A stretch of 64,000 bases of DNA, taken from contig CP065011.1 of assembly GCA_016699795.1 (NCBI GenBank), positions 78,168-142,167 of the forward strand, written 5' to 3'. The notes below the pieces were generated by a model. That model ran no database searches and was not told where the DNA came from. It was given only the letters and a program-made list of their open reading frames with translations. This document shows positions 5,430-53,244 of the stretch, piece by piece; within the stretch, counting starts at the first letter, position 1; each line of letters opens with the position of its first letter. The position numbers and the translations under genes are program-made. Source of the stretch: Candidatus Moraniibacteriota bacterium. GTDB lineage: Bacteria; Patescibacteriota; Minisyncoccia; Moranbacterales; GCA-2747515.

Positions 5430-5665
5430 CTCTCACTCCTAGGCTCACTTGCCTAAAAAATATAAAAGAACATATTTGTCCGAAAAAATTCGGTACAGGT
5501 TTGGACAGAGAGATTGTATTCTCCGTATCCAAGACTTTATCGAATAAATAAAAAAGAAAATCGACAGAGAACAATACGAATACTATCTTCTATTCGGTAA
5601 ATTTTACCAAAAGAAAAATATTATTGTATGTTCTCTGACGATTAATCGAGACGATGTTCAGACGG

Positions 5666-6079
5666 TTATTTTACCGTCCAGTAATCGTCGGATCGGGCCT
5701 TGAACGACCCGACCACGCTCCCGGGCCCAATCATTTGGGTTCCAGGAGCGGACCCAGCCTCACCCCATGTTGATCCTCCGCAGAAGATCACGTATGGGAG
5801 TCCGCTCTGCATGGCAGAAGGAGGCCCACACTCAGTCATCGACGGGCGTCCATTTTCGGCGCGACAGATCTCGCAAAGAGATGGGTCATAAGGAATGACC
5901 CTTACTCCTTGGGAAGCCGCGGACCAAGAAGTTCCGTCGTAGCGTCCAGCGTGGGCCGGAGAGGCAAGGAGGAGGAGCAGAAACAGGGTTCCTACTATTG
6001 CCAGTGTGGCTATGAAGCCCCCAAAAGAAGCTTCCGCCCACGTCTCATCCTGCTGTTGCTGATTCTGAAAATAGTTCAT
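5666..6079 (-). CDS. Small secreted Cys-containing protein, GC-rich paralog of 5019-5429
   Basis: Start is reassigned to the in-frame ATG at 6077-6079 (MNYFQNQQQQ...), which has an AGGAG Shine-Dalgarno 6 nt upstream. The AT-rich part of the track ORF (to 6352) upstream is non-coding. TM segment, then DGTSW...CEICRAENGRPSMTEC...GLPYVIFCGG, matching the neighbour's motif spacing. Roughly 50% GC versus the ~33% background. Confidence 0.45.
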   Translation of the reverse strand: MNYFQNQQQQDETWAEASFGGFIATLAIVGTLFLLLLLASPAHAGRYDGTSWSAASQGVRVIPYDPSLCEICRAENGRPSMTECGPPSAMQSGLPYVIFCGGSTWGEAGSAPGTQMIGPGSVVGSFKARSDDYWTVK

Positions 6080-6437: not shown

Positions 6438-8114
6438 CTACCCAGAAAAAGAACCTAATGCACTTTCAATTCCTCCCGAAGAAGAAATTGTTATGTGCTG
6501 TTTCTCCTCATTATTGGAAGATGCAGTTTGTTGATCTGCGGCCCAACCAAACGGTGAGGAGGTTGACGTGTTATTGTGTTGATCAGCTTTATAATCCTTT
6601 ACAAAATGATTTTCATCACTCTGAGAGGATGGGACTGATTTTGCTTTCGGAGCTACAGCTTTCGCTTTCACACCGAGGTATTGCTGAGAGCTTCCGGCAT
6701 TGTCCGTAAGAGCCGTAGTAGCAACCTGCGAGTTAGCACGAAGCCAACCCAATCCAGCATTCCACTCGATCTCCACGATGAAGTGAGGATCGGGGAATTG
6801 TACACCTACACCGATGCGCCAGACATCGTCCTTCGTAGCGATTCCGGCAAGGATTTTACCCCCGATCGGATTACTGACCACGTCGCTGATATGCCAGATC
6901 CCCAGCGTAAGCTCGGGTTTGACATTCCAGTCTGCTCGATCTAATTCGAACCGAAGAATGGCGCCGACCACGAGTTTCCTTGCGGACTCATGATTGACAG
7001 GTGTTCCTTTCCAGAGAATGTCCGTTTTGTTACCACTAAGAGGAATATCCACCCATGGCATAAAACGAACAGTTACACCAGTCTGATCATCAATTTTGAA
7101 CCGCTCCCGAAGTTGCAAAGCGATTCGAAGATCCATACCATCGGCACGGAGCTTTTCTACCAGACCATCCTTGGAGTATCCACGAGTTGAGCCTTGTCCC
7201 GCAAGGACAACGAATTCAACCGCATCGATGTCACCGACCGGTCCACGACCTTCGATACCAACGCCGTAGAAATCAGAGACTTCCACCCATTCCTTATTAT
7301 TGAAACGAGCGGACTTACCTGCGATCGACGGACCCACCTTCCAGCCGTTTCCAACTGGGAAAAGGCACGAGAAACGGAGTGATCCGCTTTCTCCACGTTG
7401 CCCCATCTGAGCCCAAAGAGCACCTACGGCTTCACAACCAAGACTTTCTTGGGTAGGAGCGGGAGCTGGTGGCGTGGGAACTGTTACTGTGTTCCAAGCA
7501 ACGTTTCCACACCGCATGGCGATGTCAACCTGCTTGCTACCATTCATGGATGGGCATGCCCAAACCATGATGTCAGTACCACTGGCGTTTTGAGTCTTGC
7601 CCCAATTCCCCTTGCCCATAGCCATACCTTCCCAGGTAAAACCTATGGGACGAGCAACGGCCTGACACTTTCCAGAAACAAGATCTCCCCGAACCTGCTC
7701 CACTTCCGAACTCGAAAGTCCGAATTGAGACAGGCGACGAGATTGCTCTGAAGTGAGTTGCAATTCTTCCGTCTTGTGCCATTCTTTCCGGAGGCGAAGA
7801 GGAAGAAGAGAATCAGCGCCGACTTTCTTCCACTGGCGAATACCAGAGGAAGATTCCAGAACAACAGGAGATTGTTTCACAGAAGAAACGACTATTCCTG
7901 ATTCTGGAAGCGTGAGGGTTTGTCCAACGCGAATCGTGTGAGGAGCCTTAATCCCATTCGCTCTGGCAATTTCTTGCCAAGAAGTCTGGGATTTATTGGC
8001 GATTTTGATCAAGGAGTCACCCTTGACCACCGTGTACGTCCCCGCCGAAGCAAGGGGCGCGCCAACAACCGCGAGAAAAATTCCCGCGATGACGAGAAGT
8101 TTCCTAAACATCAT
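6438..8114 (-). CDS. LysM (peptidoglycan-binding) domain protein with signal peptide and large beta-rich C-terminal domain
   Basis: Start trimmed to MMFRKLLVIAGIFLAVVGAPLASA (signal peptide; GGGAGG just upstream), which avoids a 62-nt overlap with the upstream gene. Canonical LysM: YTVVKGDSLIKIANKSQTSWQEIARANGIKAPHTIRVGQTLTLP. The C-terminal ~400 aa show an alternating hydrophobic beta-strand-like pattern (VTVRFMPW, LVVGAILRFELD, WRIGVGVQFP, FIVEIEWNAGLGW). Lies in the GC-rich island. Confidence 0.6.
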   Translation of the reverse strand: MMFRKLLVIAGIFLAVVGAPLASAGTYTVVKGDSLIKIANKSQTSWQEIARANGIKAPHTIRVGQTLTLPESGIVVSSVKQSPVVLESSSGIRQWKKVGADSLLPLRLRKEWHKTEELQLTSEQSRRLSQFGLSSSEVEQVRGDLVSGKCQAVARPIGFTWEGMAMGKGNWGKTQNASGTDIMVWACPSMNGSKQVDIAMRCGNVAWNTVTVPTPPAPAPTQESLGCEAVGALWAQMGQRGESGSLRFSCLFPVGNGWKVGPSIAGKSARFNNKEWVEVSDFYGVGIEGRGPVGDIDAVEFVVLAGQGSTRGYSKDGLVEKLRADGMDLRIALQLRERFKIDDQTGVTVRFMPWVDIPLSGNKTDILWKGTPVNHESARKLVVGAILRFELDRADWNVKPELTLGIWHISDVVSNPIGGKILAGIATKDDVWRIGVGVQFPDPHFIVEIEWNAGLGWLRANSQVATTALTDNAGSSQQYLGVKAKAVAPKAKSVPSSQSDENHFVKDYKADQHNNTSTSSPFGWAADQQTASSNNEEKQHITISSSGGIESALGSFSG

Positions 8115-27771: not shown

Positions 27772-28239
27772 TTAACGTTTGCTCCATTGTGGTGCTCGTC
27801 GAGCTTTTTTAAGTCCTGGTTTCTTTCGTTCAACCTTACGAGCATTTCTCGTAATCATACCAGCAGATTTAAGTGTGGGTTTAAGACCAGCATCCATATT
27901 CACTAAAGCACGAGCCACTCCTAATCGAACAGCTTCTGCCTGACCTCGCATACCACCACCACGAACAACGCAAGTTACTCGAACCTTTCCCATAAATCCA
28001 GTAAATTCGAGAGGTCTCTTGGCTTGTTTTTTAAAATCAAGATTACTAAAATATTCTTCAAAATCAACTCCGTTGACGATAAGTGAAGATTCTTCATCCT
28101 TAACTTTTTCATCGTAAACTCTTACTTGAGCTACAGAAGTTTTTCGACGACCAATTCCAGGATAATATTTTTTCACTATTACCTTCTTTTCTTGATCATC
28201 TTTCGTAGTTTGTTGTGTCATTGTTGTTGTCATATACAT
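27772..28239 (-). CDS. rpsI: 30S ribosomal protein S9
   Basis: C-terminus ...GGGMRGQAEAVRLGVARALV...ARKVERKKPGLKKARRAPQWSKR. N-terminal ~25-aa extension. Confidence 0.9.
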   Translation of the reverse strand: MYMTTTMTQQTTKDDQEKKVIVKKYYPGIGRRKTSVAQVRVYDEKVKDEESSLIVNGVDFEEYFSNLDFKKQAKRPLEFTGFMGKVRVTCVVRGGGMRGQAEAVRLGVARALVNMDAGLKPTLKSAGMITRNARKVERKKPGLKKARRAPQWSKR

Positions 28240-28248
28240 TAAAACTCT

Positions 28249-28665
28249 TTATTCATGAGTAATGTGGATAGTATGAGCATGTTCTTCTCCAATATAGAGA
28301 AAAAGTCGATTCATACGATTCTGTTGAAGCTTATTTTTGGGAAGCATTCCTAAAACCGCTTTTTCAAAAATTCTTTTAGGATCACGGTCTTTTACTTCTT
28401 CATATCGAAGCGAAGTAAGTCCTCCAGGATATCCAGAATAATGATGGTACATTTTTTTTGTTTCTTTTCCTCCTGTTACTTGAATATTTTCCACATTAGT
28501 AACAACTACAAAATCTCCTCCATCAATATGTGGAGTGAATGAGGGGTGATGCTTTCCAATTAAAATCTGAGCGACTTTAGTTGCAAGACGACCAAGAACC
28601 TCGTCTTTAGCATCAAATAAATGATATTTCCGGGTGATTTGCTTCATACGTTCACAAAAAATCAA
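28249..28665 (-). CDS. rplM: 50S ribosomal protein L13
   Basis: WHLFDAKDEVLGRLATKVAQILIGKHHP... is an L13 signature. 4-nt overlap with rplQ. Confidence 0.9.
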   Translation of the reverse strand: MIFCERMKQITRKYHLFDAKDEVLGRLATKVAQILIGKHHPSFTPHIDGGDFVVVTNVENIQVTGGKETKKMYHHYSGYPGGLTSLRYEEVKDRDPKRIFEKAVLGMLPKNKLQQNRMNRLFLYIGEEHAHTIHITHE

Positions 28666-29030
28666 TCAACAAATTCTACCACTGCCATCTTAGCGCTATC
28701 ACTTTTTCTGGCAGGGAGTTTAGTTACACGAGTAAAACCACTAGTTCTTATTTCAAATCGTTTACGAAAATCATCATCAGCAAATTTTTCTACCGCCATC
28801 TTAGGAAGACGACTTGCCAAAAGACGCAATATAGCAACTTTTCTTTCCGGATCAGAAATTTTCTTAGCAATAGTAACCACACGATCAATTCGAGCCTTTA
28901 TTTCTTTAGCTTTTGCCTCTGTCGTTACAATACGTTCACGCTGAATAAGACTTCCCATGAGAGTCTTTAAAAGTGCTCGCCTCTGCGAACGAACTCTTCC
29001 GAATTTTCTTCCTTGACTACGATGTTTCAT
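28662..29030 (-). CDS. rplQ: 50S ribosomal protein L17
   Basis: MKHRSQGRKFGRVRSQRRALLKTLMGSLIQRERIVTT... Confidence 0.9.
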   Translation of the reverse strand: MKHRSQGRKFGRVRSQRRALLKTLMGSLIQRERIVTTEAKAKEIKARIDRVVTIAKKISDPERKVAILRLLASRLPKMAVEKFADDDFRKRFEIRTSGFTRVTKLPARKSDSAKMAVVEFVD

Positions 29031-29058
29031 AACTGTTTCTCAAATAATTCTTTTAGAA

Positions 29059-29757
29059 CTATTTTTCTTCTTTAGGTGAAATCAATGATTGGAATTGTTC
29101 AACGAGTATTTCTACTGAGCGATCAAATGCCTCTTTGGGAGTCATCACACCGTCGGTTTCAATATCTAATCGAACTCTTTCATAATCCGTTCTCTTTCCG
29201 ACGCGAACGTTATCGACCGTAAAATTTACACGCTTTACTGGAGTAAAAATAGCATCAATAGCAATAACTCCAATTTCTTTTTCAGGACGATCTTGCTGTT
29301 CTACAGGAACATAGCCAAGTCCTTTACGAACTTCTATTTCCATTTCGAACTGAGCTTTTTTGTCTGTAAGTGTAGCGATTACCTGGTCAGGATTCACTAC
29401 CTTTATATCAGAGGTTACTTTTATATCACCGGCTGTAACAACCTTTTCACCTTTTACTTTAACAGAAACTTTTACACTTTCTTCTCCGAGTACTTGAAAA
29501 CGAACTCGTTTCATATTGAGAAGAATTTGTATAATATCTTCACGAACATGTTCGATAGTCGAGAATTCATGTTGAACTCCTGAGATTTTTATAGAAACTG
29601 CTGCGGCCCCCTCAAGAGAAGAAAGAAGCACTCGTCGAAGAGCGTTTCCTAATGTTGATCCGTAGCCAGGATAACACCCGACTATTTCCACGGATCCGCG
29701 GAATTGATCATCTTCATGGTACTCTACTTTCTGAGGTGGGAGAATGGCGTATTTCAT
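29059..29757 (-). CDS. rpoA: DNA-directed RNA polymerase alpha subunit, N-terminal (dimerisation/assembly) domain only, 232 aa
   Basis: GYGSTLGNALRRVLLSSLEGAAAVSIKISGVQHEFSTIEHVREDIIQILLNMKRVRF matches alpha-NTD. The ORF ends 28 nt before rplQ, so no linker or alpha-CTD is encoded here. Confidence 0.85.
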   Translation of the reverse strand: MKYAILPPQKVEYHEDDQFRGSVEIVGCYPGYGSTLGNALRRVLLSSLEGAAAVSIKISGVQHEFSTIEHVREDIIQILLNMKRVRFQVLGEESVKVSVKVKGEKVVTAGDIKVTSDIKVVNPDQVIATLTDKKAQFEMEIEVRKGLGYVPVEQQDRPEKEIGVIAIDAIFTPVKRVNFTVDNVRVGKRTDYERVRLDIETDGVMTPKEAFDRSVEILVEQFQSLISPKEEK

Positions 29758-29796
29758 GGTAATGGCATTTTAGAAAATTACGCGAAAAAATTATAT

Positions 29797-30432
29797 TTAC
29801 TTAGAATAAAATTCAACAACTAATTGAGGATTGAAATCACCTTCAATATGATCACGAGTTGGCTGAGCAAGAACAATTCCTTCCCATTTCGATTCATCAA
29901 AAACCAACCATCCGGGTGTATCATTCTGACGAGTTTTTCGAGCTTCCTTCAAAAGAGTAAGGTATTTTTTCTCAACATTTTCTTTTCTTATAGCAATCGT
30001 ATCACCTACTTTTATTCTACAAGAAGGAATATCTGTCTTTTTCCCATTAAGGAGAAAAAAACCATGACTAACAAGCTGACGAGCTTGTGCTCGAGAAGTA
30101 GAAAATCCGAGACGATATACAACATTATCAAAACGTTCTTCCAAACGCTGTAAAAGTAAATCACCAGTAATACCTTCTTTTCCTTGAACTTCAGCAAAAT
30201 GTCTTCGAAACTGAGCCTCTAGAACACCATAAGCTCGTTTAATCTTTTGCTTCATTGCAAGTTGACGCCCAAATTCACTTGGAGCCTTTCCTCTCGCTTG
30301 TCCATGCATACCTGGAGCATATGGACGTCTTACCATTGCACATTTTGGAGTAAGACAACGATCTCCTTTCAAAAAGAGTTTCTCTCCTGCTCGTCGACAC
30401 AATACACATTTGGAATTAAGTTCTCTCGCCAT
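29797..30432 (-). CDS. rpsD: 30S ribosomal protein S4
   Basis: MARELNSKCVLCRRAGEKLFLKGDRCLTPKCAMVRRPYAPGMHGQ... (zinc-ribbon S4 plus S4 RNA-binding domain). Confidence 0.9.
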   Translation of the reverse strand: MARELNSKCVLCRRAGEKLFLKGDRCLTPKCAMVRRPYAPGMHGQARGKAPSEFGRQLAMKQKIKRAYGVLEAQFRRHFAEVQGKEGITGDLLLQRLEERFDNVVYRLGFSTSRAQARQLVSHGFFLLNGKKTDIPSCRIKVGDTIAIRKENVEKKYLTLLKEARKTRQNDTPGWLVFDESKWEGIVLAQPTRDHIEGDFNPQLVVEFYSK

Positions 30433-30491
30433 ATACTCTAGGAATTCACGATTATATAATTCTCACACTTTTCAGGAAACACTATTTCTCA

Positions 30492-30992
30492 TTATACTCG
30501 ACGAGGTCGTCTAGGTCGACAACCATTGTGAGCTATTGGTGTAATATCTTTAATAGAAAGAATTTCGAATCCATTATTTGCCAAAGATCGTATAGCAGAT
30601 TCTCGTCCACTCCCGACACCTTTCACAAAAACTTCTATTTCCTTCAACTGATGCTTTCGAACTTTTTCAGTCACATCTGCTACTACTTGGGTAGCTGCAT
30701 AAGGCGTAGATTTCTTTGCCCCTTTAAAGCCCAAAAGCCCACTACTTGACCAAGAAAGAACACCCCCCTGAGCATCACTCAACATAACCATAGTATTATT
30801 GTATGTACATTGGATGTGAGCTTGTCCGCGTAAAACTTGACGCTTTCCTCTTTGCTTTTTGGAAAGAGGAGTTGTTGCAGAAACAGTATTCGAAACAGAA
30901 TCAATAACGGATTCCTTCTCAACAGCTTTCACTTCTGAAACTTCTTCTTTCAAAGCTTCTTTTTCGCTCGTTTTATTCTTCTCTTCGGTCAT
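30492..30992 (-). CDS. rpsK: 30S ribosomal protein S11 with ~45-aa Lys/Glu-rich N-terminal extension
   Basis: ...AHIQCTYNNTMVMLSDAQGGVLSWSSSGLLGFKGAKKSTPYAAT...PHNGCRPRRPRRV. The core is 120 aa. Confidence 0.9.
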   Translation of the reverse strand: MTEEKNKTSEKEALKEEVSEVKAVEKESVIDSVSNTVSATTPLSKKQRGKRQVLRGQAHIQCTYNNTMVMLSDAQGGVLSWSSSGLLGFKGAKKSTPYAATQVVADVTEKVRKHQLKEIEVFVKGVGSGRESAIRSLANNGFEILSIKDITPIAHNGCRPRRPRRV

Positions 30993-31043
30993 AAAAACAT
31001 ATCAATTACAAAAATATATCGGGCACTTGGAATTTAAAATCTT

Positions 31044-31433
31044 TTATGTCTTTTCAGACGCTGATCTTCGACCACTACCCATTGTTCTTCGGACATTACC
31101 CCTAACTGTTCTTGTATTCGTCTTCGTTCTTTGTCCCCGAACAGGAAGCCCTTTTGAATGGCGCATACCTCGATATGATCCGATTTCTTTCAAACGACGA
31201 ATATTCATCTTTATTTCATGACGCAAATCACCCTCTACACGATGTTGTTTTTCTACAACATCTCTAAGTCGATTCACATCCTCTTCTGAAACATCTTTCA
31301 TTCTTGTGTCGGGATTTATACCAAGTTCAGCTAAAATTTTCTGACTTGTTGGAAGACCTATTCCATATACATAGGTAAGAGAAATTTCCACTCTCTTTTT
31401 ATCCGGCAAAGTTACTCCAGCAATACGAGCCAT
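31044..31433 (-). CDS. rpsM: 30S ribosomal protein S13
   Basis: [34 protein letters not shown]... Confidence 0.9.
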
Positions 31434-31474
31434 ATAGTTTATTAAGTAAGATTATCCTTTATTCTTTAAAATTC

Positions 31475-31588
31475 TTAACCTTGTCTTTGCTTATGCTTTG
31501 GAGTTATGCAAATAACATAAACACGTCCGCGTCTTCGAACAACTTTACAACGATCACATATTTTTTTCACAGATGCGCGAACCTTCAT
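31475..31588 (-). CDS. rpmJ: 50S ribosomal protein L36 (37 aa; missing from the ORF track because it is under 60 aa)
   Basis: Minus-strand ATG at 31586-31588. Translation [37 protein letters not shown], stop TAA at 31475-31477. C-x2-C-x12-C-x4-H zinc ribbon identical in pattern to bacterial L36. Confidence 0.85.
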
Positions 31589-31600
31589 ATATAATAATCA

Positions 31601-31819
31601 TTACAATCGTCTAGTAATTCTTCCTTTAGAGAGGTCATATGGACTCAGTTCTATAAGAACTTTGTCACCTGGCAATAATCTAATGTAATGCACTCTCATT
31701 TTTCCTGAAATATGAGCGAGAACCTCATGATCATTTTCGAGTTTTACACGAAACGTCGTACTCGGTAATGTCTCTAAAACAGTACCTTCTAAGACGATAA
31801 CGTCTTTTTTTTCTCCCAT
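31601..31819 (-). CDS. infA: Translation initiation factor IF-1
   Basis: [71 protein letters not shown]. Confidence 0.9.
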
Positions 31820-31855
31820 AGGGTGGTAAAAAATTGATTCTTCAATAACAAAAAA

Positions 31856-31886
31856 TGAAACCGTGTGTGTTTCATCGAATTTTTTT
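31856..31886. terminator. Hairpin + T-run in the infA 5' leader (candidate attenuator/terminator, works on both strands)
   Basis: tgaaac-cgtgtgt-gtttca, then tcgaa and ttttttt on plus. On minus the same stem is followed by uuuuuug. Sits between the putative infA promoter (~31959-31987) and the infA start. Confidence 0.3.
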
Positions 31887-31958
31887 CTCCGATGAATCTG
31901 AACTCGCTTTTTTTAAAAAAAATAGGCACTTCAGCGCATATATTCAAAGCGTATGTAC

Positions 31959-31987
31959 ACCTTAGACCGTACAAAAAGTTTTGTCAA
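31959..31987 (-). promoter_or_regulatory. Candidate promoter for the infA-rpsI ribosomal operon
   Basis: Minus strand TTGACA (complement of 31982-31987), 17-nt spacer, TAAGGT (weak -10). Leader ~135 nt. Confidence 0.25.
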
Positions 31988-32019
31988 GACCTACAGAGTT
32001 AACAGGAATAGGTAACACT

Positions 32020-32028
32020 TGGTATACT
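32020..32028 (+). promoter_or_regulatory. Extended -10 promoter (TGgTATACT) reading rightward into the 32040-32470 unassigned region
   Basis: ttggtatact is TG-n-TATACT. Possible -35 TTAACA 19 nt upstream. Divergent from the infA promoter. Confidence 0.35.
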
Positions 32029-32192
32029 ATGAGGTGACACCATTAACTATGAAAAAGAGTATTACCAATTTCGATAAGTTATATTCGAAAAAGAAAGTGT
32101 TTTATAACAATACAAAGATGGATAAAAAAAGAAAAAAGAGCATTATTAAAAAATTCAACAATGCTCTTTAGATAAAGATACTCTCCGTCTAT

Positions 32193-32218
32193 AGATATAG
32201 ACTTTAGATATAGACTTT
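32193..32218. repeat. 13-bp perfect tandem duplication (agatatagacttt x2) flanked by gtctat direct repeats
   Basis: gtctat-[agatatagacttt][agatatagacttt]-gtctat at 32187-32224. Also forms the partial palindrome gtctatagatatagac. Confidence 0.8.
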
Positions 32219-32223
32219 GTCTA

Positions 32224-32406
32224 TTATTTAATCTTATTCTCTTCCCTTAACTTTACGACTCCTAGATAACACGCTTCCTCGCAATCAGGGGCTCCACTAT
32301 GCCAGCCCTGACGCTCTCGGACCTTACAGCCAGAGCCACCAAGGAAATAACAAAGTTTCCTCTGCAAAGATTTGAGCTTTGCTTTTTCATTTCCTCTCTT
32401 CTTCAA
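32224..32406 (-). CDS. Possible small Cys4 protein (60 aa) in GC-richer patch. Coding status uncertain; alternatively a structured RNA
   Basis: ORF MKKRGNEKAKLKSLQRKLCYFLGGSGCKVRERQGWHSGAPDCEEACYLGVVKLREENKIK with AAGGAG 7 nt upstream of the ATG. C-x7-C...C-x3-C spacing. Local GC is clearly above the surrounding intergenic DNA. Confidence 0.3.
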   Translation of the reverse strand: MKKRGNEKAKLKSLQRKLCYFLGGSGCKVRERQGWHSGAPDCEEACYLGVVKLREENKIK

Positions 32407-32474
32407 TTTTTTTCTCCTTTTTTAAAGCTCTTTAACCCATTCAAAGAACTTATTCAATAAATACATTATTTTTA

Positions 32475-33629
32475 CTATTTTGTCAATACTAATTTTACTT
32501 CTTGAGCACATTTCCTCCAAGAATATTTCATAGAAACTTTCTTGGCTCTCAATATGATTTCTTCTCGCAATACCTTATCTTCCAATATCTCATTTAATGC
32601 TAAAGAGATTTCTTCAGGTCGAAAGGGGTCTACATAGAGAGCACCTTCTCTTGCAATCTCTCCAAGAGATGAGGAAGATGATGTGATAACTGGAACACCA
32701 CATTTCATTGCCTCTACTACCGGAAAACCAAAACCTTCGTACAAAGAAGGATAAAGAAATACAGTTGCTAAATTATAAAGTTTTTTCTTATCATCTTCAC
32801 AAATAAAACCTATGCGTCGAATATCTTTTTTGTATGGACTATCCTCAATTTCTTTTAGCATCTCCTCTTCTCTCCATCCCGAAGAGCCTGCAAGAATAAG
32901 TTGTACGGGAATGTCTTTTTTTATTTTTACACGTGATCTTCTATATGCGGTATATCCCCGAACAATAGCTTTTATATTTTTCCTCGGTTCAAATGTCCCC
33001 ATGTAAAGAATAAAACGATAAGGAAGTTTTAATTTATCCTTAAAAGTCAATAGATCCAAGTCATTTCGATTCATGATGCCATAGTTATTGGAAATTCCAC
33101 TATGAATAACATCTATCTTTTCTTCTTTTATTCCATAAAAACGAATAATATCATTTTTCGTTGAGTGAGAAACCGCGATTAAATTATTGGCTCGGAAAAA
33201 GAGCTGTCGTGGATTTACAAAAATATGCCACAGTCTTCGTTTTAAAGAAAAGGTTTGAGGATAAATATCAAAAGAAACATCATGAACAGTCAAAACGAAA
33301 CGGCATTTTGGTGAAACTGAAATAAATCCTAAATTTGGAGCAAAAAAAATATCTACCCCACCCATGAAAATATCTAAATACGGTCTTCGAAAATACCAAA
33401 GACAAAAATTAAGGATTTTATTGGGTATTTTTTTTCGACAAATGGTAACATTTTTATATTTTTCTACCCATGAAAAATCTGGGATATTTTGAAAAAAAGC
33501 ATTAAAAAAAAGAACAAATGTGTGCTCGGGTGATGATTCCACGAGTCTTGTTATCACATTTCGAGCATATTCTTCAACTCCTGTACACCTTCCTCCAGTA
33601 AAACACCGCGCATCAATTCCGATTTTCAT
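32475..33629 (-). CDS. Glycosyltransferase family 4
   Basis: MKIGIDARCF... N-terminus, and EGFGFPVVEAMKCGVPVITSSSSSLGEIA, the donor-binding motif of GT4. Confidence 0.7.
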   Translation of the reverse strand: MKIGIDARCFTGGRCTGVEEYARNVITRLVESSPEHTFVLFFNAFFQNIPDFSWVEKYKNVTICRKKIPNKILNFCLWYFRRPYLDIFMGGVDIFFAPNLGFISVSPKCRFVLTVHDVSFDIYPQTFSLKRRLWHIFVNPRQLFFRANNLIAVSHSTKNDIIRFYGIKEEKIDVIHSGISNNYGIMNRNDLDLLTFKDKLKLPYRFILYMGTFEPRKNIKAIVRGYTAYRRSRVKIKKDIPVQLILAGSSGWREEEMLKEIEDSPYKKDIRRIGFICEDDKKKLYNLATVFLYPSLYEGFGFPVVEAMKCGVPVITSSSSSLGEIAREGALYVDPFRPEEISLALNEILEDKVLREEIILRAKKVSMKYSWRKCAQEVKLVLTK

Positions 33630-33693
33630 ATTCTATGCTCTTATTATCATACGGCTATAAATCTCTTTTCTAGAAATACTGTCTTGAAAAAAT

Positions 33694-34311
33694 CTAACTT
33701 TCAAAATGAGTTCGGATACCAACACCCCACAACCCAAAAACAATTCCCACAGCCAACGCTCCCAAAAGTACTCGAGTCCATGGTATATGATAAGGGTATG
33801 TTATCGGCTTTTCTACAACAACTCGAAACCATGTAATATTTTTTTTAGACTCGTCAATATTTAGATTTGCCGTTCTCTCATTAAGAACTTTCTCTAAAGA
33901 AGTTGCAAGATCTTGGGCTATCTTCTCTGTTGCGGTAGTATATCGAACTTCTATGTATTGAGAAGAAAGACGCTTTGCTGAAAAAATCTTTGGCAATTCA
34001 TATTCCGCTGGCATAACAACACTTCTACCAATTCCAGAATAAATATCAGCAACAATACTTGGTGAAGCAAGCCAACGAACGAGCGTGTCAGCAAAACGCT
34101 CATCCGCTTGAAGCCTATAAAAGTCATCATAGTGATATTCTTCCGCCTGAGTTTCATTATGAACTCTACCCACATGAAGAGAAAGAACGGTTGTGTATCG
34201 AACTGGTTGCAAAAGAAGGAAAAGTACAACTATCCCCACTGTGGAAGCTACTATCAAAAAAAACATAAAATGATATTTTTTTAATTTAGCAATAAATTCT
34301 TTCAGTTCCAT
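33694..34311 (-). CDS. Polysaccharide co-polymerase (Wzz-like) family protein
   Basis: 205 aa. N-terminal TM, soluble domain, Pro-rich KPITYPYHIPWTRV, then C-terminal TM (LLGALAVGIVFGLWGVGI). Confidence 0.4.
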   Translation of the reverse strand: MELKEFIAKLKKYHFMFFLIVASTVGIVVLFLLLQPVRYTTVLSLHVGRVHNETQAEEYHYDDFYRLQADERFADTLVRWLASPSIVADIYSGIGRSVVMPAEYELPKIFSAKRLSSQYIEVRYTTATEKIAQDLATSLEKVLNERTANLNIDESKKNITWFRVVVEKPITYPYHIPWTRVLLGALAVGIVFGLWGVGIRTHFES

Positions 34312-34322
34312 ACAATATTCCT

Positions 34323-36623
34323 TTACTTTATAAAATTTCCATCTTTTTTCATTTGATCGAGTCGAACTGAAAGGATTTGTGAAACACCATCCTCCATAGT
34401 AACTCCATAAAGAACATCCGCTTTTTGCATAGTTTCTCGATTGTGAGTAATAACAATAAACTGAGTTCGCGACGAAAGAGTTCTTAATAAATTTCCAAAA
34501 CGCTTTGAGTTCGTTTCATCCAAAGAAGCCTCAACTTCATCAAGAAAGACAAAGGGTGGTGGATTATAAGAAATAATTGCAAAAAGAAGAGCCAAAGAAA
34601 CTAAAGATCTCTCTCCCCCAGAAAGAACGCCCAATTGATCTATTTTTTTCTTAGGAGGTTTTACAATGATATCGACACCCCACTTTGCATATTTTCTTTC
34701 ATTTATCAAAACTTCATCATATTCATCATAGAATTTATCCTCTTCCTCTTCTTGATCTTCAGAGAATTCTTTTACCTTTTCCAAACTTGCCGTACCACCA
34801 TCAAACATTAATGTAAAATATTTTCCAAATTCTTGATTTATTTTCTCAAAAGCTTCTGAAAAATCTTTCTCTATTCGAATATTCATTTCACGTATTACTT
34901 TTTCCAAAGAAATAACAGCTTGCTCAAGATCATTATGTTCACGAACAAGAAAAGAATATCGTTCATTAGTTTCTGAGTATTCCTGTGCAATCATAGGATC
35001 TATACCCCCTATCATAGCTAATTGAGATTTAAGTCTCTCTATAAAGCGAAATGTTTCATCATTCGCCTGTATATCTTCCCCAATTTCAAGAGCGAGCGAT
35101 TTTGGATCTCGACCCAGTTCTGATTGAATTTCCCTTTCTAAATCTTCTTTTCTGATTTCACATCGAGTAAAAGCAATTTTTTTCTCGTTAAAAGATTTTC
35201 TTACTTGATAAAGATTCTCCCGAATATTAACTATTTCTTTTTCGAGGGAAAAATAAAGAGTACTTGCATTTTTCGTATCTGCCTCCAAAAGAAGAATTTC
35301 TTTTTCTTTTTTAAGAATTTCTTTTTCTTTTTTAAGAATTTCTCTAGAAAATTCTTGAACCTGTTCTTCTCCTTTTTGAATCTTTTCCTCAAAAAATTTC
35401 CTTTCTTTTTCTAAAATTTCTTTTTCTCTTCCAATTCGAACCGTTGATTGAGCACAATCTTCATAAAGAGAATCTATTTCTTCAAGAAAATTATCAAGAA
35501 ACTTTTTTCTCTCTTCCAAAGAAACTTTTTTTTCTCTTCCAAAGATTATATTCATTTCTTGAAAAGATTTTTTGAGACTCAAAAGTCGCTTCCTCACAAA
35601 AGGAAGATCCACAGGAATGACATCAAAAATTCTCTGATGATTCTTTCTTTCTTTTTCAACATCGATCATTCCCTGACATTGAGATCTCTTTCTTTCAAAT
35701 TCGGAAATTTCTCTTCTTAATAATGCGATCTTTTTTTGAAGTAAATTACTCTGAGAAGTTTCTTGCATTTTGTTTGAAACCGAACTTTGTTGAGAAATAT
35801 ATTTTTGTAATTTTTGTTCCAATACATTCTCCTCCTTTTCTAAAATTAAAAGTATAGATTGAAATTCTTCATATTCACAAGAAAATCTTTTCCACAAAAC
35901 TCTATAATAGGATGATTGGATAATACGAAGTTGATCTTCAATTTCTCTTCTTTGTTCAGCACGTTTTGATTGACGTTTCAAAATACGCAATCTCGGTTCT
36001 ATTTCTTCAATAAGCTTCCCTGTTATAAGAAGATTTTCTCTTGTTGTTATAAGTCTTTTTATCGAACGGTCCCGTTTTATTTGATAAGGTTTCACACCAG
36101 CAGCTTCTTCTAAAATACTTCTTCGCTCCATCGATGAAGCTGATAATATTGCATCAGACATCCCTTGGTTAAGAACGCATTGACTTTCTTTTCCAATACC
36201 GATAGAAGCAAAAAGGTCAATAACATCTAAAAGTCTAACTTGCGTTCCATTTATAAGATATTCTCCTTCTCCGCTTTTATAAATCTTTCTTGTTACCAAA
36301 ACATCCTGATAATCAACATCCATCTTTTTGTCTGAATTATCAAAGACAAGAGTTACTGTTCCAGAGCTCATCATTGATCTCTTTTTCGAACCAGAGAAGA
36401 TAACATCATGGGATTTTTTTGCACGAAGACTTTTTGTAGATTGTTCACCCATAACCCAGCGAAGAGCATCTACAATATTTGATTTTCCAGAACCATTCGG
36501 ACCCACAATAGCTGTCACACCAATACGATCAGGATCTCGATCTTTTTGTAAAACACAAAAAAAGAGCTCTGTTTTAGTAGCAAAAGATTTAAAACCATTT
36601 AAAATTATTTTTTGTAAATACAT
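34323..36623 (-). CDS. smc: SMC-family chromosome segregation ATPase, short form (766 aa, no obvious hinge)
   Basis: N-terminus KIILNGFKSFATKT...IVGPNGSGKSNIVDALRWVMGEQS (SMC head, Walker A). C-terminus LSGGERSLVSLALLFAI...FLDEVEASLD (signature plus Walker B). Long coiled coil between. Much shorter than canonical ~1150-aa SMC. Confidence 0.65.
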   Translation of the reverse strand: MYLQKIILNGFKSFATKTELFFCVLQKDRDPDRIGVTAIVGPNGSGKSNIVDALRWVMGEQSTKSLRAKKSHDVIFSGSKKRSMMSSGTVTLVFDNSDKKMDVDYQDVLVTRKIYKSGEGEYLINGTQVRLLDVIDLFASIGIGKESQCVLNQGMSDAILSASSMERRSILEEAAGVKPYQIKRDRSIKRLITTRENLLITGKLIEEIEPRLRILKRQSKRAEQRREIEDQLRIIQSSYYRVLWKRFSCEYEEFQSILLILEKEENVLEQKLQKYISQQSSVSNKMQETSQSNLLQKKIALLRREISEFERKRSQCQGMIDVEKERKNHQRIFDVIPVDLPFVRKRLLSLKKSFQEMNIIFGREKKVSLEERKKFLDNFLEEIDSLYEDCAQSTVRIGREKEILEKERKFFEEKIQKGEEQVQEFSREILKKEKEILKKEKEILLLEADTKNASTLYFSLEKEIVNIRENLYQVRKSFNEKKIAFTRCEIRKEDLEREIQSELGRDPKSLALEIGEDIQANDETFRFIERLKSQLAMIGGIDPMIAQEYSETNERYSFLVREHNDLEQAVISLEKVIREMNIRIEKDFSEAFEKINQEFGKYFTLMFDGGTASLEKVKEFSEDQEEEEDKFYDEYDEVLINERKYAKWGVDIIVKPPKKKIDQLGVLSGGERSLVSLALLFAIISYNPPPFVFLDEVEASLDETNSKRFGNLLRTLSSRTQFIVITHNRETMQKADVLYGVTMEDGVSQILSVRLDQMKKDGNFIK
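35295..35336. repeat. Perfect 21-bp tandem duplication inside smc coiled-coil region
   Basis: aatttctttttcttttttaag x2 (35295-35315, 35316-35336). Encodes KEKEILK-KEKEILK. Confidence 0.85.
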
Positions 36624-53171: not shown

Positions 53172-53244
53172 TGGACCCGAGAGGACTCGAACCCCCCACC
53201 TCCTCGGTGCAAACGAGGCGCTCTACCAGATGAGCTACGGGCCC
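53172..53244 (-). tRNA. tRNA-Ala (anticodon UGC), 73 nt, CCA not encoded
   Basis: Reverse complement GGGCCCGTAGCTCATCTGGTAGAGCGCCTCGTTTGCACCGAGGAGGTGGGGGGTTCGAGTCCTCTCGGGTCCA. 7-bp acceptor stem with the G3:U70 alanine identity pair, D-arm GCTC/GAGC, anticodon loop TTTGCAC, T-loop TTCGAGT, discriminator A. Confidence 0.9.

Follow-up and report, generated by a model that had tools for sequence, protein, structure and literature searches.

What lies between infA and a glycosyltransferase gene in the genome of a Candidatus Moraniibacteriota bacterium, a member of the candidate phyla radiation (CPR), is the question raised by positions 31820-32474 of the 64-kb stretch of DNA analysed here, hereafter called the window. 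This region has a GC content of 33%, compared with 35% in the window, and the minus strand carries every gene flanking it. A preliminary description had noted a GC-rich patch overlapping a 60-codon open reading frame (ORF) on the minus strand, and had proposed either a small zinc-ribbon protein, possibly ribosome-associated given its location, or a structured non-coding RNA (ncRNA). Our comparisons make it likely that the region consists of a small, self-contained and unannotated minus-strand gene together with a lineage-specific spacer that holds signals upstream of infA; the product of the gene may be a metal-binding cytosolic microprotein.

The GC-rich patch and the four-cysteine gene

The gene and its ribosome-binding signal occupy the following positions.

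32406..32224, minus strand: protein-coding gene, unannotated, with a TTG start, 60 amino acids and a TAA stop; sequence MKKRGNEKAKLKSLQRKLCYFLGGSGCKVRERQGWHSGAPDCEEACYLGVVKLREENKIK
32419..32414, minus strand: Shine-Dalgarno sequence AAGGAG, exactly 7 nt before the TTG start

All the elements of this ORF given in the preliminary description are present, namely its 60 codons, the AAGGAG motif 7 nt upstream and the C-x7-C...C-x3-C spacing, which in full reads C19-x7-C27-x14-C42-x3-C46. The GC-rich patch at 32258-32345 was also confirmed, with 58% GC; it belongs to the top 0.57% of the 88-nt windows of the 64 kb, where its GC level is reached at only six other places, a tRNA gene among them. This patch is the coding core of the ORF, rich in Cys, Gly, Arg, Ala and Pro: the GC content of the core is 0.65 at first codon positions (GC1) and 0.53 at second positions (GC2), and derives largely from Gly, Ala, Arg, Pro, Cys and Trp codons.

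A homologue in the sister species

A word-indexed search with the 60-residue product found no shared words with 5.8 billion predicted proteins, a collection from which the sequence itself is absent. Since this search gave nothing, the route to relatives went via the neighbouring glycosyltransferase (GT), whose position is given here together with that of infA.

32475..33629, minus strand: GT4-family glycosyltransferase (Pfam Glycos_transf_1, 2.5e-29), the upstream neighbour, linked to the small gene
31601..31819, minus strand: infA, encoding IF-1 (PF01176 on the identical gene in contig L001), the downstream neighbour of the small gene in the window genome only

The nearest homologue of the GT, P0002 (72% identity), is the orthologue in a sister species. 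It was found on a short contig, L002, whose final 57 bases open an ORF reading MPVKSRRAVLKELQKKKCF; this peptide is preceded by AGGAGG and matches the N-terminus of the window ORF. In a phmmer search of 1.84 billion representative proteins there was one credible homologue, P0121, a protein of 68 amino acids (E=1.2e-12, 59% identity) that begins with exactly the L002 peptide, the other two matches being repeat proteins. The conservation of the 60-residue peptide, which the preliminary description had put forward as a check, was thereby found in the sister species. P0121 itself matched only itself in the word-indexed search. It occurs on 12 contigs, its ORF DNA is identical at the 10 places listed, which represent 10 different samples, and the ORF lies directly 3' of the GT wherever the contig reaches far enough upstream.

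In the window, a Wzz-like protein of 205 amino acids and an SMC protein are encoded upstream of the GT, and the 39.6-kb contig L014 of the sister species carries, in order, SMC, a 204-amino-acid protein, the GT, P0121 and a class II tRNA synthetase. In both species the small gene comes directly after the GT, whereas its downstream neighbour is infA in the window and the tRNA synthetase in the sister species. These loci show linkage of the small gene to the SMC / Wzz-like / GT4 cluster, not to infA. In relatives, what comes after the GT is miaA (L003, L007) or the tRNA synthetase (L014), so the GT/infA junction is a lineage-specific rearrangement point, and the adjacency to infA offers no functional clue. 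The proposal that the product is ribosome-associated given its location does not survive this comparison, since the sister gene follows the same GT and precedes a tRNA synthetase, not infA.

More distant Moranbacteria retain the SMC / Wzz-like / GT block; downstream of it lies miaA, encoded on the other strand (L003, L007), or unrelated sequence (L010-L013), and none of the distant loci with a GT orthologue (L003-L013) has a homologous small ORF. No further members came from pattern scans of unannotated DNA, in which the GTDB species genomes gave no match and the only matches in JGI metagenomes, two GAPDCEEAC sites (L024, L025), were spurious, each lying within a larger gene encoded on the opposite strand. 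As far as can be seen from these searches, the small gene belongs to a two-member orphan family confined to two sister Moranbacteria species. A literature search on cysteine-rich small proteins of CPR bacteria turned up nothing relevant.

Two other observations were made at these loci. In one of the more distant Moranbacteria (L009, 6229-6435, plus strand) a different ORF of 68 amino acids lies directly after the orthologous GT, with the spacing C-x2-C-x15-C-x3-C and GW between the cysteine pairs; no relationship to the window protein was detected (BLASTP E=1.7; hhalign probability 0.1), and this four-cysteine ORF may be a coincidence or a positional analogue. At their 3' ends, L010-L013 and L002, which are independent contigs from related species, stop within about 60-170 nt past the GT stop codon, which suggests strain variation or assembly-breaking sequence just past the GT.

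Selection on the encoded protein

When the window ORF was aligned with P0121, 30 columns were invariant, including all four cysteines, and the invariant blocks were FLGGxGC, RERQxW, APxCEEAC and GVVK. Within the 44 core codons, 61% of the nucleotides and 66% of the amino acids (29/44) are identical, and the nucleotide differences fall 13/11/27 on first, second and third codon positions (chi-square p=0.011). The proportion of synonymous differences (pS) in this core is 0.87, which is saturated, and that of nonsynonymous differences (pN) is 0.25; over the full 51-codon alignment, 19 codon pairs differ and yet are synonymous. The other five frames contain stops or give 8-20 identities, and only the frame of the ORF is open in both species. 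When the same 51 substitutions were placed randomly over the 132 columns, 15.4±2.2 identical residues were obtained, against 29 observed, with a maximum of 25 in 20,000 trials (P<5e-5), and 7% of the trials were stop-free. Judged by this substitution pattern, which shows that the amino acids have been kept, the 60-codon ORF is a real coding gene under protein-level purifying selection, and the GC-rich patch, read from the same alignment, is coding sequence and not structured RNA. The C-terminal tails of the two proteins diverge (window 32224-32406 compared with L014 5001-5207), and the window ORF stops 8 codons earlier.

Architecture of the gene

The putative signals around the ORF are these.

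32486..32458, minus strand: candidate promoter of the small gene, with TTGACA (32486..32481), 17 nt and TATTTA (32463..32458), overlapping the last codons and the stop of the GT gene
32425..32451, minus strand: conserved hairpin AAGUUCUUUGA-AUGGG-UUAAAGAGCUU, between the promoter and the Shine-Dalgarno sequence
32193..32218, no strand assigned: 13-bp perfect tandem duplication, two copies of AGATATAGACTTT, in the 3' untranslated region (UTR) of the small gene
32169..32120, minus strand: intrinsic terminator, a 16-bp hairpin (32169..32135) followed by UUUUUUCUUUUUUU; -16.5 kcal/mol, z-score (z) -6.4

Both species share one layout: a candidate promoter located where the GT gene ends, a 5' hairpin, a Shine-Dalgarno sequence, the ORF and an intrinsic terminator. 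In the window, the gene would accordingly read from a promoter within the GT 3' end through the 5' hairpin, AAGGAG, the TTG at 32406, the 60 codons and the 3' UTR to the terminator at 32169..32120. At the aligned position in the last GT codons, the sister locus carries TTGACA-17-TATATT with a TG extension, a near-consensus promoter (11/12), and its Shine-Dalgarno sequence is AGGAGG, 8 nt before an ATG. The sister terminator occupies the same relative place (L014 5250-5284) with an unrelated sequence (-17.7 kcal/mol, z -5.0) plus UUUUUGAUUUCUU.

The 5' hairpin has a predicted energy of -9.3 kcal/mol (z -3.1) in the window and -15.3 kcal/mol (z -4.7) in the sister species, and the hairpin block is about 80% identical between the two while synonymous sites are saturated. 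Both departures from a perfect palindrome in the window hairpin are G·U pairs in the minus-strand RNA only, which speaks for an RNA stem rather than a DNA operator. Coming from a comparison of two sequences, this is a hint, not proof, that the hairpin acts as an RNA stem. The hairpin could be a stem-loop in the 5' UTR of the small gene or else a structure at the end of the GT gene.

The 13-bp perfect tandem duplication flanked by gtctat, as first described, was recovered by Tandem Repeats Finder with a 100% match (32192-32218, period 13, 2.1 copies). The gtctat flanks lie at 32187-32192 and 32219-32224, and short palindromes are formed with them (fold z -2.2). In the sister species there is one related copy, GGTCTTTATATTAG, and it codes for the C-terminal tail of the longer ORF there; from this comparison the duplication looks like a lineage-specific slippage event.

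What the protein might be

The product of the small gene is a hydrophilic protein of 6.9 kDa with a pI of 9.65 and a grand average of hydropathy (GRAVY) of -0.89; the corresponding values for P0121 are a pI of 9.89 and a GRAVY of -0.62. It has no signal peptide, membrane segment or hydrophobic segment (maximum hydropathy 0.46), and its N-terminal 18 residues have a net charge of +7. Because of its size, pI, GRAVY and basic N-terminus, together with the four invariant cysteines, we propose that it would be a cytosolic protein folded by a metal: the small protein would stay in the cytoplasm, the four cysteines would coordinate a single metal centre (Zn2+ or a small Fe-S cluster) around which the core would fold, and the basic N-terminal helix could then make contact with nucleic acid or with a partner protein.

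Database comparisons were negative throughout. Pfam and NCBIfam gave 0 families at E<=10 for both family members, PADLOC and PHROGs gave no match for the small protein, and the best result of a profile search of the PDB was only E=0.74, to a tick evasin. Foldseek comparison of an AlphaFold2 model with the PDB returned only C5a at E>2, which was discarded as noise.

Known groups of proteins resemble the product in part. Cys4 zinc-binding proteins (zinc ribbons and the ribosomal proteins bL36, bL31, bL32, bL33 and bS14) are likewise of about 40-70 amino acids, basic and cytosolic, with four conserved cysteines as the only obvious structural determinant, and are frequently missed by gene callers. 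However, they have two CxxC or CxxH knuckles, whereas the small protein has C-x7-C-x14-C-x3-C in both species, and it shows no linkage to ribosomal genes in the sister species and no sequence match in Pfam, NCBIfam or the PDB. From the earlier proposal of a small zinc-ribbon protein, a conserved and selected four-cysteine coding gene therefore stands, while the term zinc ribbon does not, as there are no CxxC knuckles and no matches in these three databases. Thioredoxin-like [2Fe-2S] ferredoxins and NuoE-type sites have ligands in the order C…C…C-x3-C, in proteins that have a thioredoxin fold, a length of at least about 100 amino acids and far longer spacers. The likeness, four cysteines with C-x3-C as the last two ligands, is a lead only, and the Pfam models of these ferredoxins give no match to the small protein. 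Lineage-restricted orphan small ORFs, or microproteins, are also short, narrowly distributed, missed by annotation in one genome and equipped with their own Shine-Dalgarno sequence and terminator; purifying selection and the invariant Cys4 motif, however, lift the small gene above a merely predicted small ORF. A more specific reading, which we regard as speculative and rather unlikely, is that of a recently born or acquired metal-binding microprotein of one small Moranbacteria clade that serves the conserved SMC / Wzz-like / GT4 envelope cluster as a functional accessory, for instance by regulating the GT or acting as its partner, with a type of Cys4 site absent from family and structure databases.

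Several points weigh against the reading of the region as a gene for a metal-binding protein. The length of the ORF is within chance, since an ORF of at least 60 codons occurs in 23% of the dinucleotide shuffles of the region, and an ATG ORF of at least 40 codons in 41%; the signal rests on the comparative data and not on the ORFs themselves. Two species are known, and the selection analysis is one pairwise comparison. The GC content of the core at third codon positions (GC3) is 0.44, compared with 0.23 in the long genes of the window and 0.26 in the sister species. The start codon in the window is TTG, and the -10 element TATTTA is weak (3/6) and was not listed by the promoter scan, the -35 element being perfect. 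As regards the product, no family, structure or neighbour points to a function, the cysteine spacing is unlike any metal site compared, and the AlphaFold2 model, built on a two-sequence alignment, has a mean confidence (pLDDT) of 58 and is unreliable.

Plus-strand features and competing explanations

Two features on the plus strand bear on the alternatives.

31999..32028, plus strand: promoter-like site, TTAACA, 18 nt and TG-n-TATACT, 10/12; it would yield a transcript antisense to the small gene
32049..32171, plus strand: Lys-rich ORF, ATG at 32049, stop at 32169-32171, 40 amino acids (50 amino acids from a TTG at 32019)

The first contains TGGTATACT at 32020-32028, which had been called a perfect extended -10; the TG extension is there, while the hexamer TATACT matches at 5 of 6 positions and is not perfect. 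The region holds 6 promoter-like sites against 4.1±2.0 in shuffles, so that there is no enrichment, and the divergent promoter of the preliminary description amounts to a match to the consensus. The second feature had been given as 42 codons at 32049-32177, and the ORF exists, although it ends at 32171, 6 nt earlier, and encodes 40 amino acids. Its 3' half is the complement of the minus-strand terminator hairpin and T-run, it has no aligned counterpart region in the sister species and no Pfam match, and ORFs of its length are common in shuffles. We consequently judge this ORF to be spurious. Both this ORF and the plus-strand terminator-like hairpin discussed below are by-products of minus-strand signals and coding sequence.

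If the GC-rich patch were a structured ncRNA (SRP-like, 6S-like, a leader of the infA/alpha operon or a new small RNA), the ORF would be incidental. This explanation could draw on the unusual GC level of the patch, shared with a tRNA gene, on the promoter-like and terminator-like sites that flank it on both strands, on the elevated GC3 of the core, above the norm of the genome, and on two pairs with changes on both sides that RNAalifold gives in the 3' sub-hairpin. However, a scan of the whole window with Rfam at the gathering score found only tRNA-Ala at 53172-53244, and in the region nothing covered 32250-32350 even at E<=10, with no signal recognition particle (SRP), 6S, RNase P, tmRNA or leader family; at this threshold the Plastid-psbA-2 match on the terminator hairpin and the freshwater-2 match on the Shine-Dalgarno sequence were set aside as noise. 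Folded on either strand, the patch is no more stable than its shuffles (minimum free energy z 0.02 on the minus and -1.14 on the plus strand). The three-way fold predicted for the window is not kept in the sister species, and RNAalifold on both species (102 nt) found no shared multi-helix fold, the consensus having -8.6 kcal/mol on the minus and -2.35 kcal/mol on the plus strand. Moreover, the substitutions pile up at third codon positions and the amino acids are kept, a pattern that constraint on an RNA does not give. The AGGUCCG stretch thought to recall SRP RNA domain IV, AAGGUCCG, is indeed present on the minus strand and, as in bacterial small SRP RNA (RF00169), an AGGUCCG-like string is followed by a GNRA-like GAGA; the likeness ends there, since cmscan gave no match at E<=10, the pairing around the tetraloop of the window, as read from its sequence, is not SRP-like, and the segment evolves as coding sequence. 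The ncRNA explanation is therefore largely refuted and we hold it to be extremely unlikely. A related possibility is a sense/antisense pair, in which an antisense RNA of about 350 nt, running from the promoter-like site at 31999-32028 to a terminator-like hairpin at 32364-32382, would control the small gene or be itself functional. A promoter-like site with 10/12 matches and a TG extension is present, as are a plus-strand terminator-like hairpin and T-run, and the plus-strand span 32030-32395 folds with z -2.8. This last value was discarded as an RNA signal, because it stems from palindromes, those of the terminator stem and of the duplicated 3' UTR, that fold equally well on both strands. The plus-strand terminator-like hairpin falls within codons 9-15, a stretch in which Lys and Leu codons are mutual reverse complements. 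As no comparable antisense promoter is among the sites listed for the sister locus and the two species cannot be aligned downstream of the terminator, we give the antisense pair very little credence.

The region could also be decaying intergenic DNA at a rearrangement junction, with ORFs, repeats and promoter-like sites that arose by chance. The frequency of equally long ORFs in shuffles, the lack of enrichment of promoter-like sites, the lineage-specific GT/infA junction and the 300 nt proximal to infA, unmatched and devoid of a folding signal, would all fit this view. Against it, the ORF, the Shine-Dalgarno sequence, the 5' hairpin and the position of the terminator have been kept in the sister species despite saturated synonymous sites, and terminator-like sites are enriched in the region (5 against 0.7±0.8 in shuffles). 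As an account of the whole region decay is thus very unlikely, but it may hold for the stretch 31820-32119, the infA promoter excepted. Finally, the ORF might encode the precursor of a secreted or modified cysteine peptide (a bacteriocin with a double-glycine leader, or a glycocin-like peptide), with cleavage after FLGG and perhaps modification by the neighbouring GT, as the likeness to double-glycine leaders and S-glycosylated glycocins would have it. The invariant L-G-G does follow a charged, helix-prone N-terminus of 20 residues, the cysteine pairs are in the C-terminal part and the GT is always adjacent. Yet this GT4 is part of the conserved SMC / Wzz-like / GT cluster, which many Moranbacteria have without the small ORF, so that the GT is a housekeeping envelope enzyme. 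No peptidase-ABC exporter is among the neighbours listed at the sister locus, a search that covered the locus and not whole genomes, the invariant C19 would fall in the leader, and the most conserved blocks straddle the putative cleavage site. A secreted cysteine peptide is in our view highly improbable, and a cytosolic four-cysteine protein encoded by a self-contained gene is preferred.

The infA side of the region and its neighbourhood

Beyond the terminator of the small gene, the region continues as follows.

31820..32119, minus strand: non-coding spacer, lineage-specific, which holds the presumed infA promoter and 5' UTR

A candidate infA promoter on the minus strand consists of TTGACA (31987..31982), 17 nt and TAAGGT (to 31959). 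The 300 nt between the terminator and infA show no similarity to any fetched locus, no Rfam match (E<=10) and no folding signal (minimum free energy z -0.48), and exact-sequence look-ups of infA and rpmJ, made as a route to the infA loci of relatives, found neither on record. We take the stretch to be a spacer holding the candidate infA promoter. The Logan contig L001 is base-for-base identical to the window over the region and has no gene calls between its GT and infA; the GT of the window also matches, at 100% identity, a protein encoded in a Candidatus Moraniibacteriota metagenome-assembled genome.

After infA come, in order, rpmJ, rpsM, rpsK, rpsD, rpoA and rplQ, and bL36 has its own gene at 31475-31588. 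In the window, at 27772-36623, this infA-rpmJ-rpsM-rpsK-rpsD-rpoA-rplQ block lacks the usual secY-adk-map before it and abuts the SMC / Wzz-like / GT4 cluster. The start of infA, ATGGGAGAAAAAAA (31806-31819, minus strand), reappears 74 nt upstream as ATCGGAGAAAAAAA (31880-31893, 13/14 identical), a copy lying within the loop of a 9-bp hairpin that is predicted for the presumed 5' UTR of infA, and the Shine-Dalgarno region of the small gene (32407-32420) is a third related copy. A palindrome, AAGACGTTATCGTCTT, lies at 31791-31806 within codons 4-10 of infA; with the T-run after it, it was flagged as a plus-strand terminator-like site, which is probably incidental. Elsewhere in the window, other GC-rich islands (at least 58% over 88 nt) are at 5659-6042 and 7179-8112, inside a 228-amino-acid ORF with no Pfam match and a 575-amino-acid LysM-domain protein; they stand apart from the remainder of the window in composition, perhaps through foreign origin or an amino-acid bias.

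Significance

Beyond its annotation value the finding is an ordinary one and has no bearing on a long-standing open question. It illustrates that a striking island of high GC content in an otherwise AT-rich genome can turn out to be coding sequence instead of structured RNA, and that a guess based on a neighbour, here that a protein is ribosome-associated because its gene is next to infA, collapses once a second species is examined. For the organism, one real gene is added to the annotation of a CPR genome, and with it comes a two-member orphan Cys4 family with an invariant motif that is usable for finding more members.

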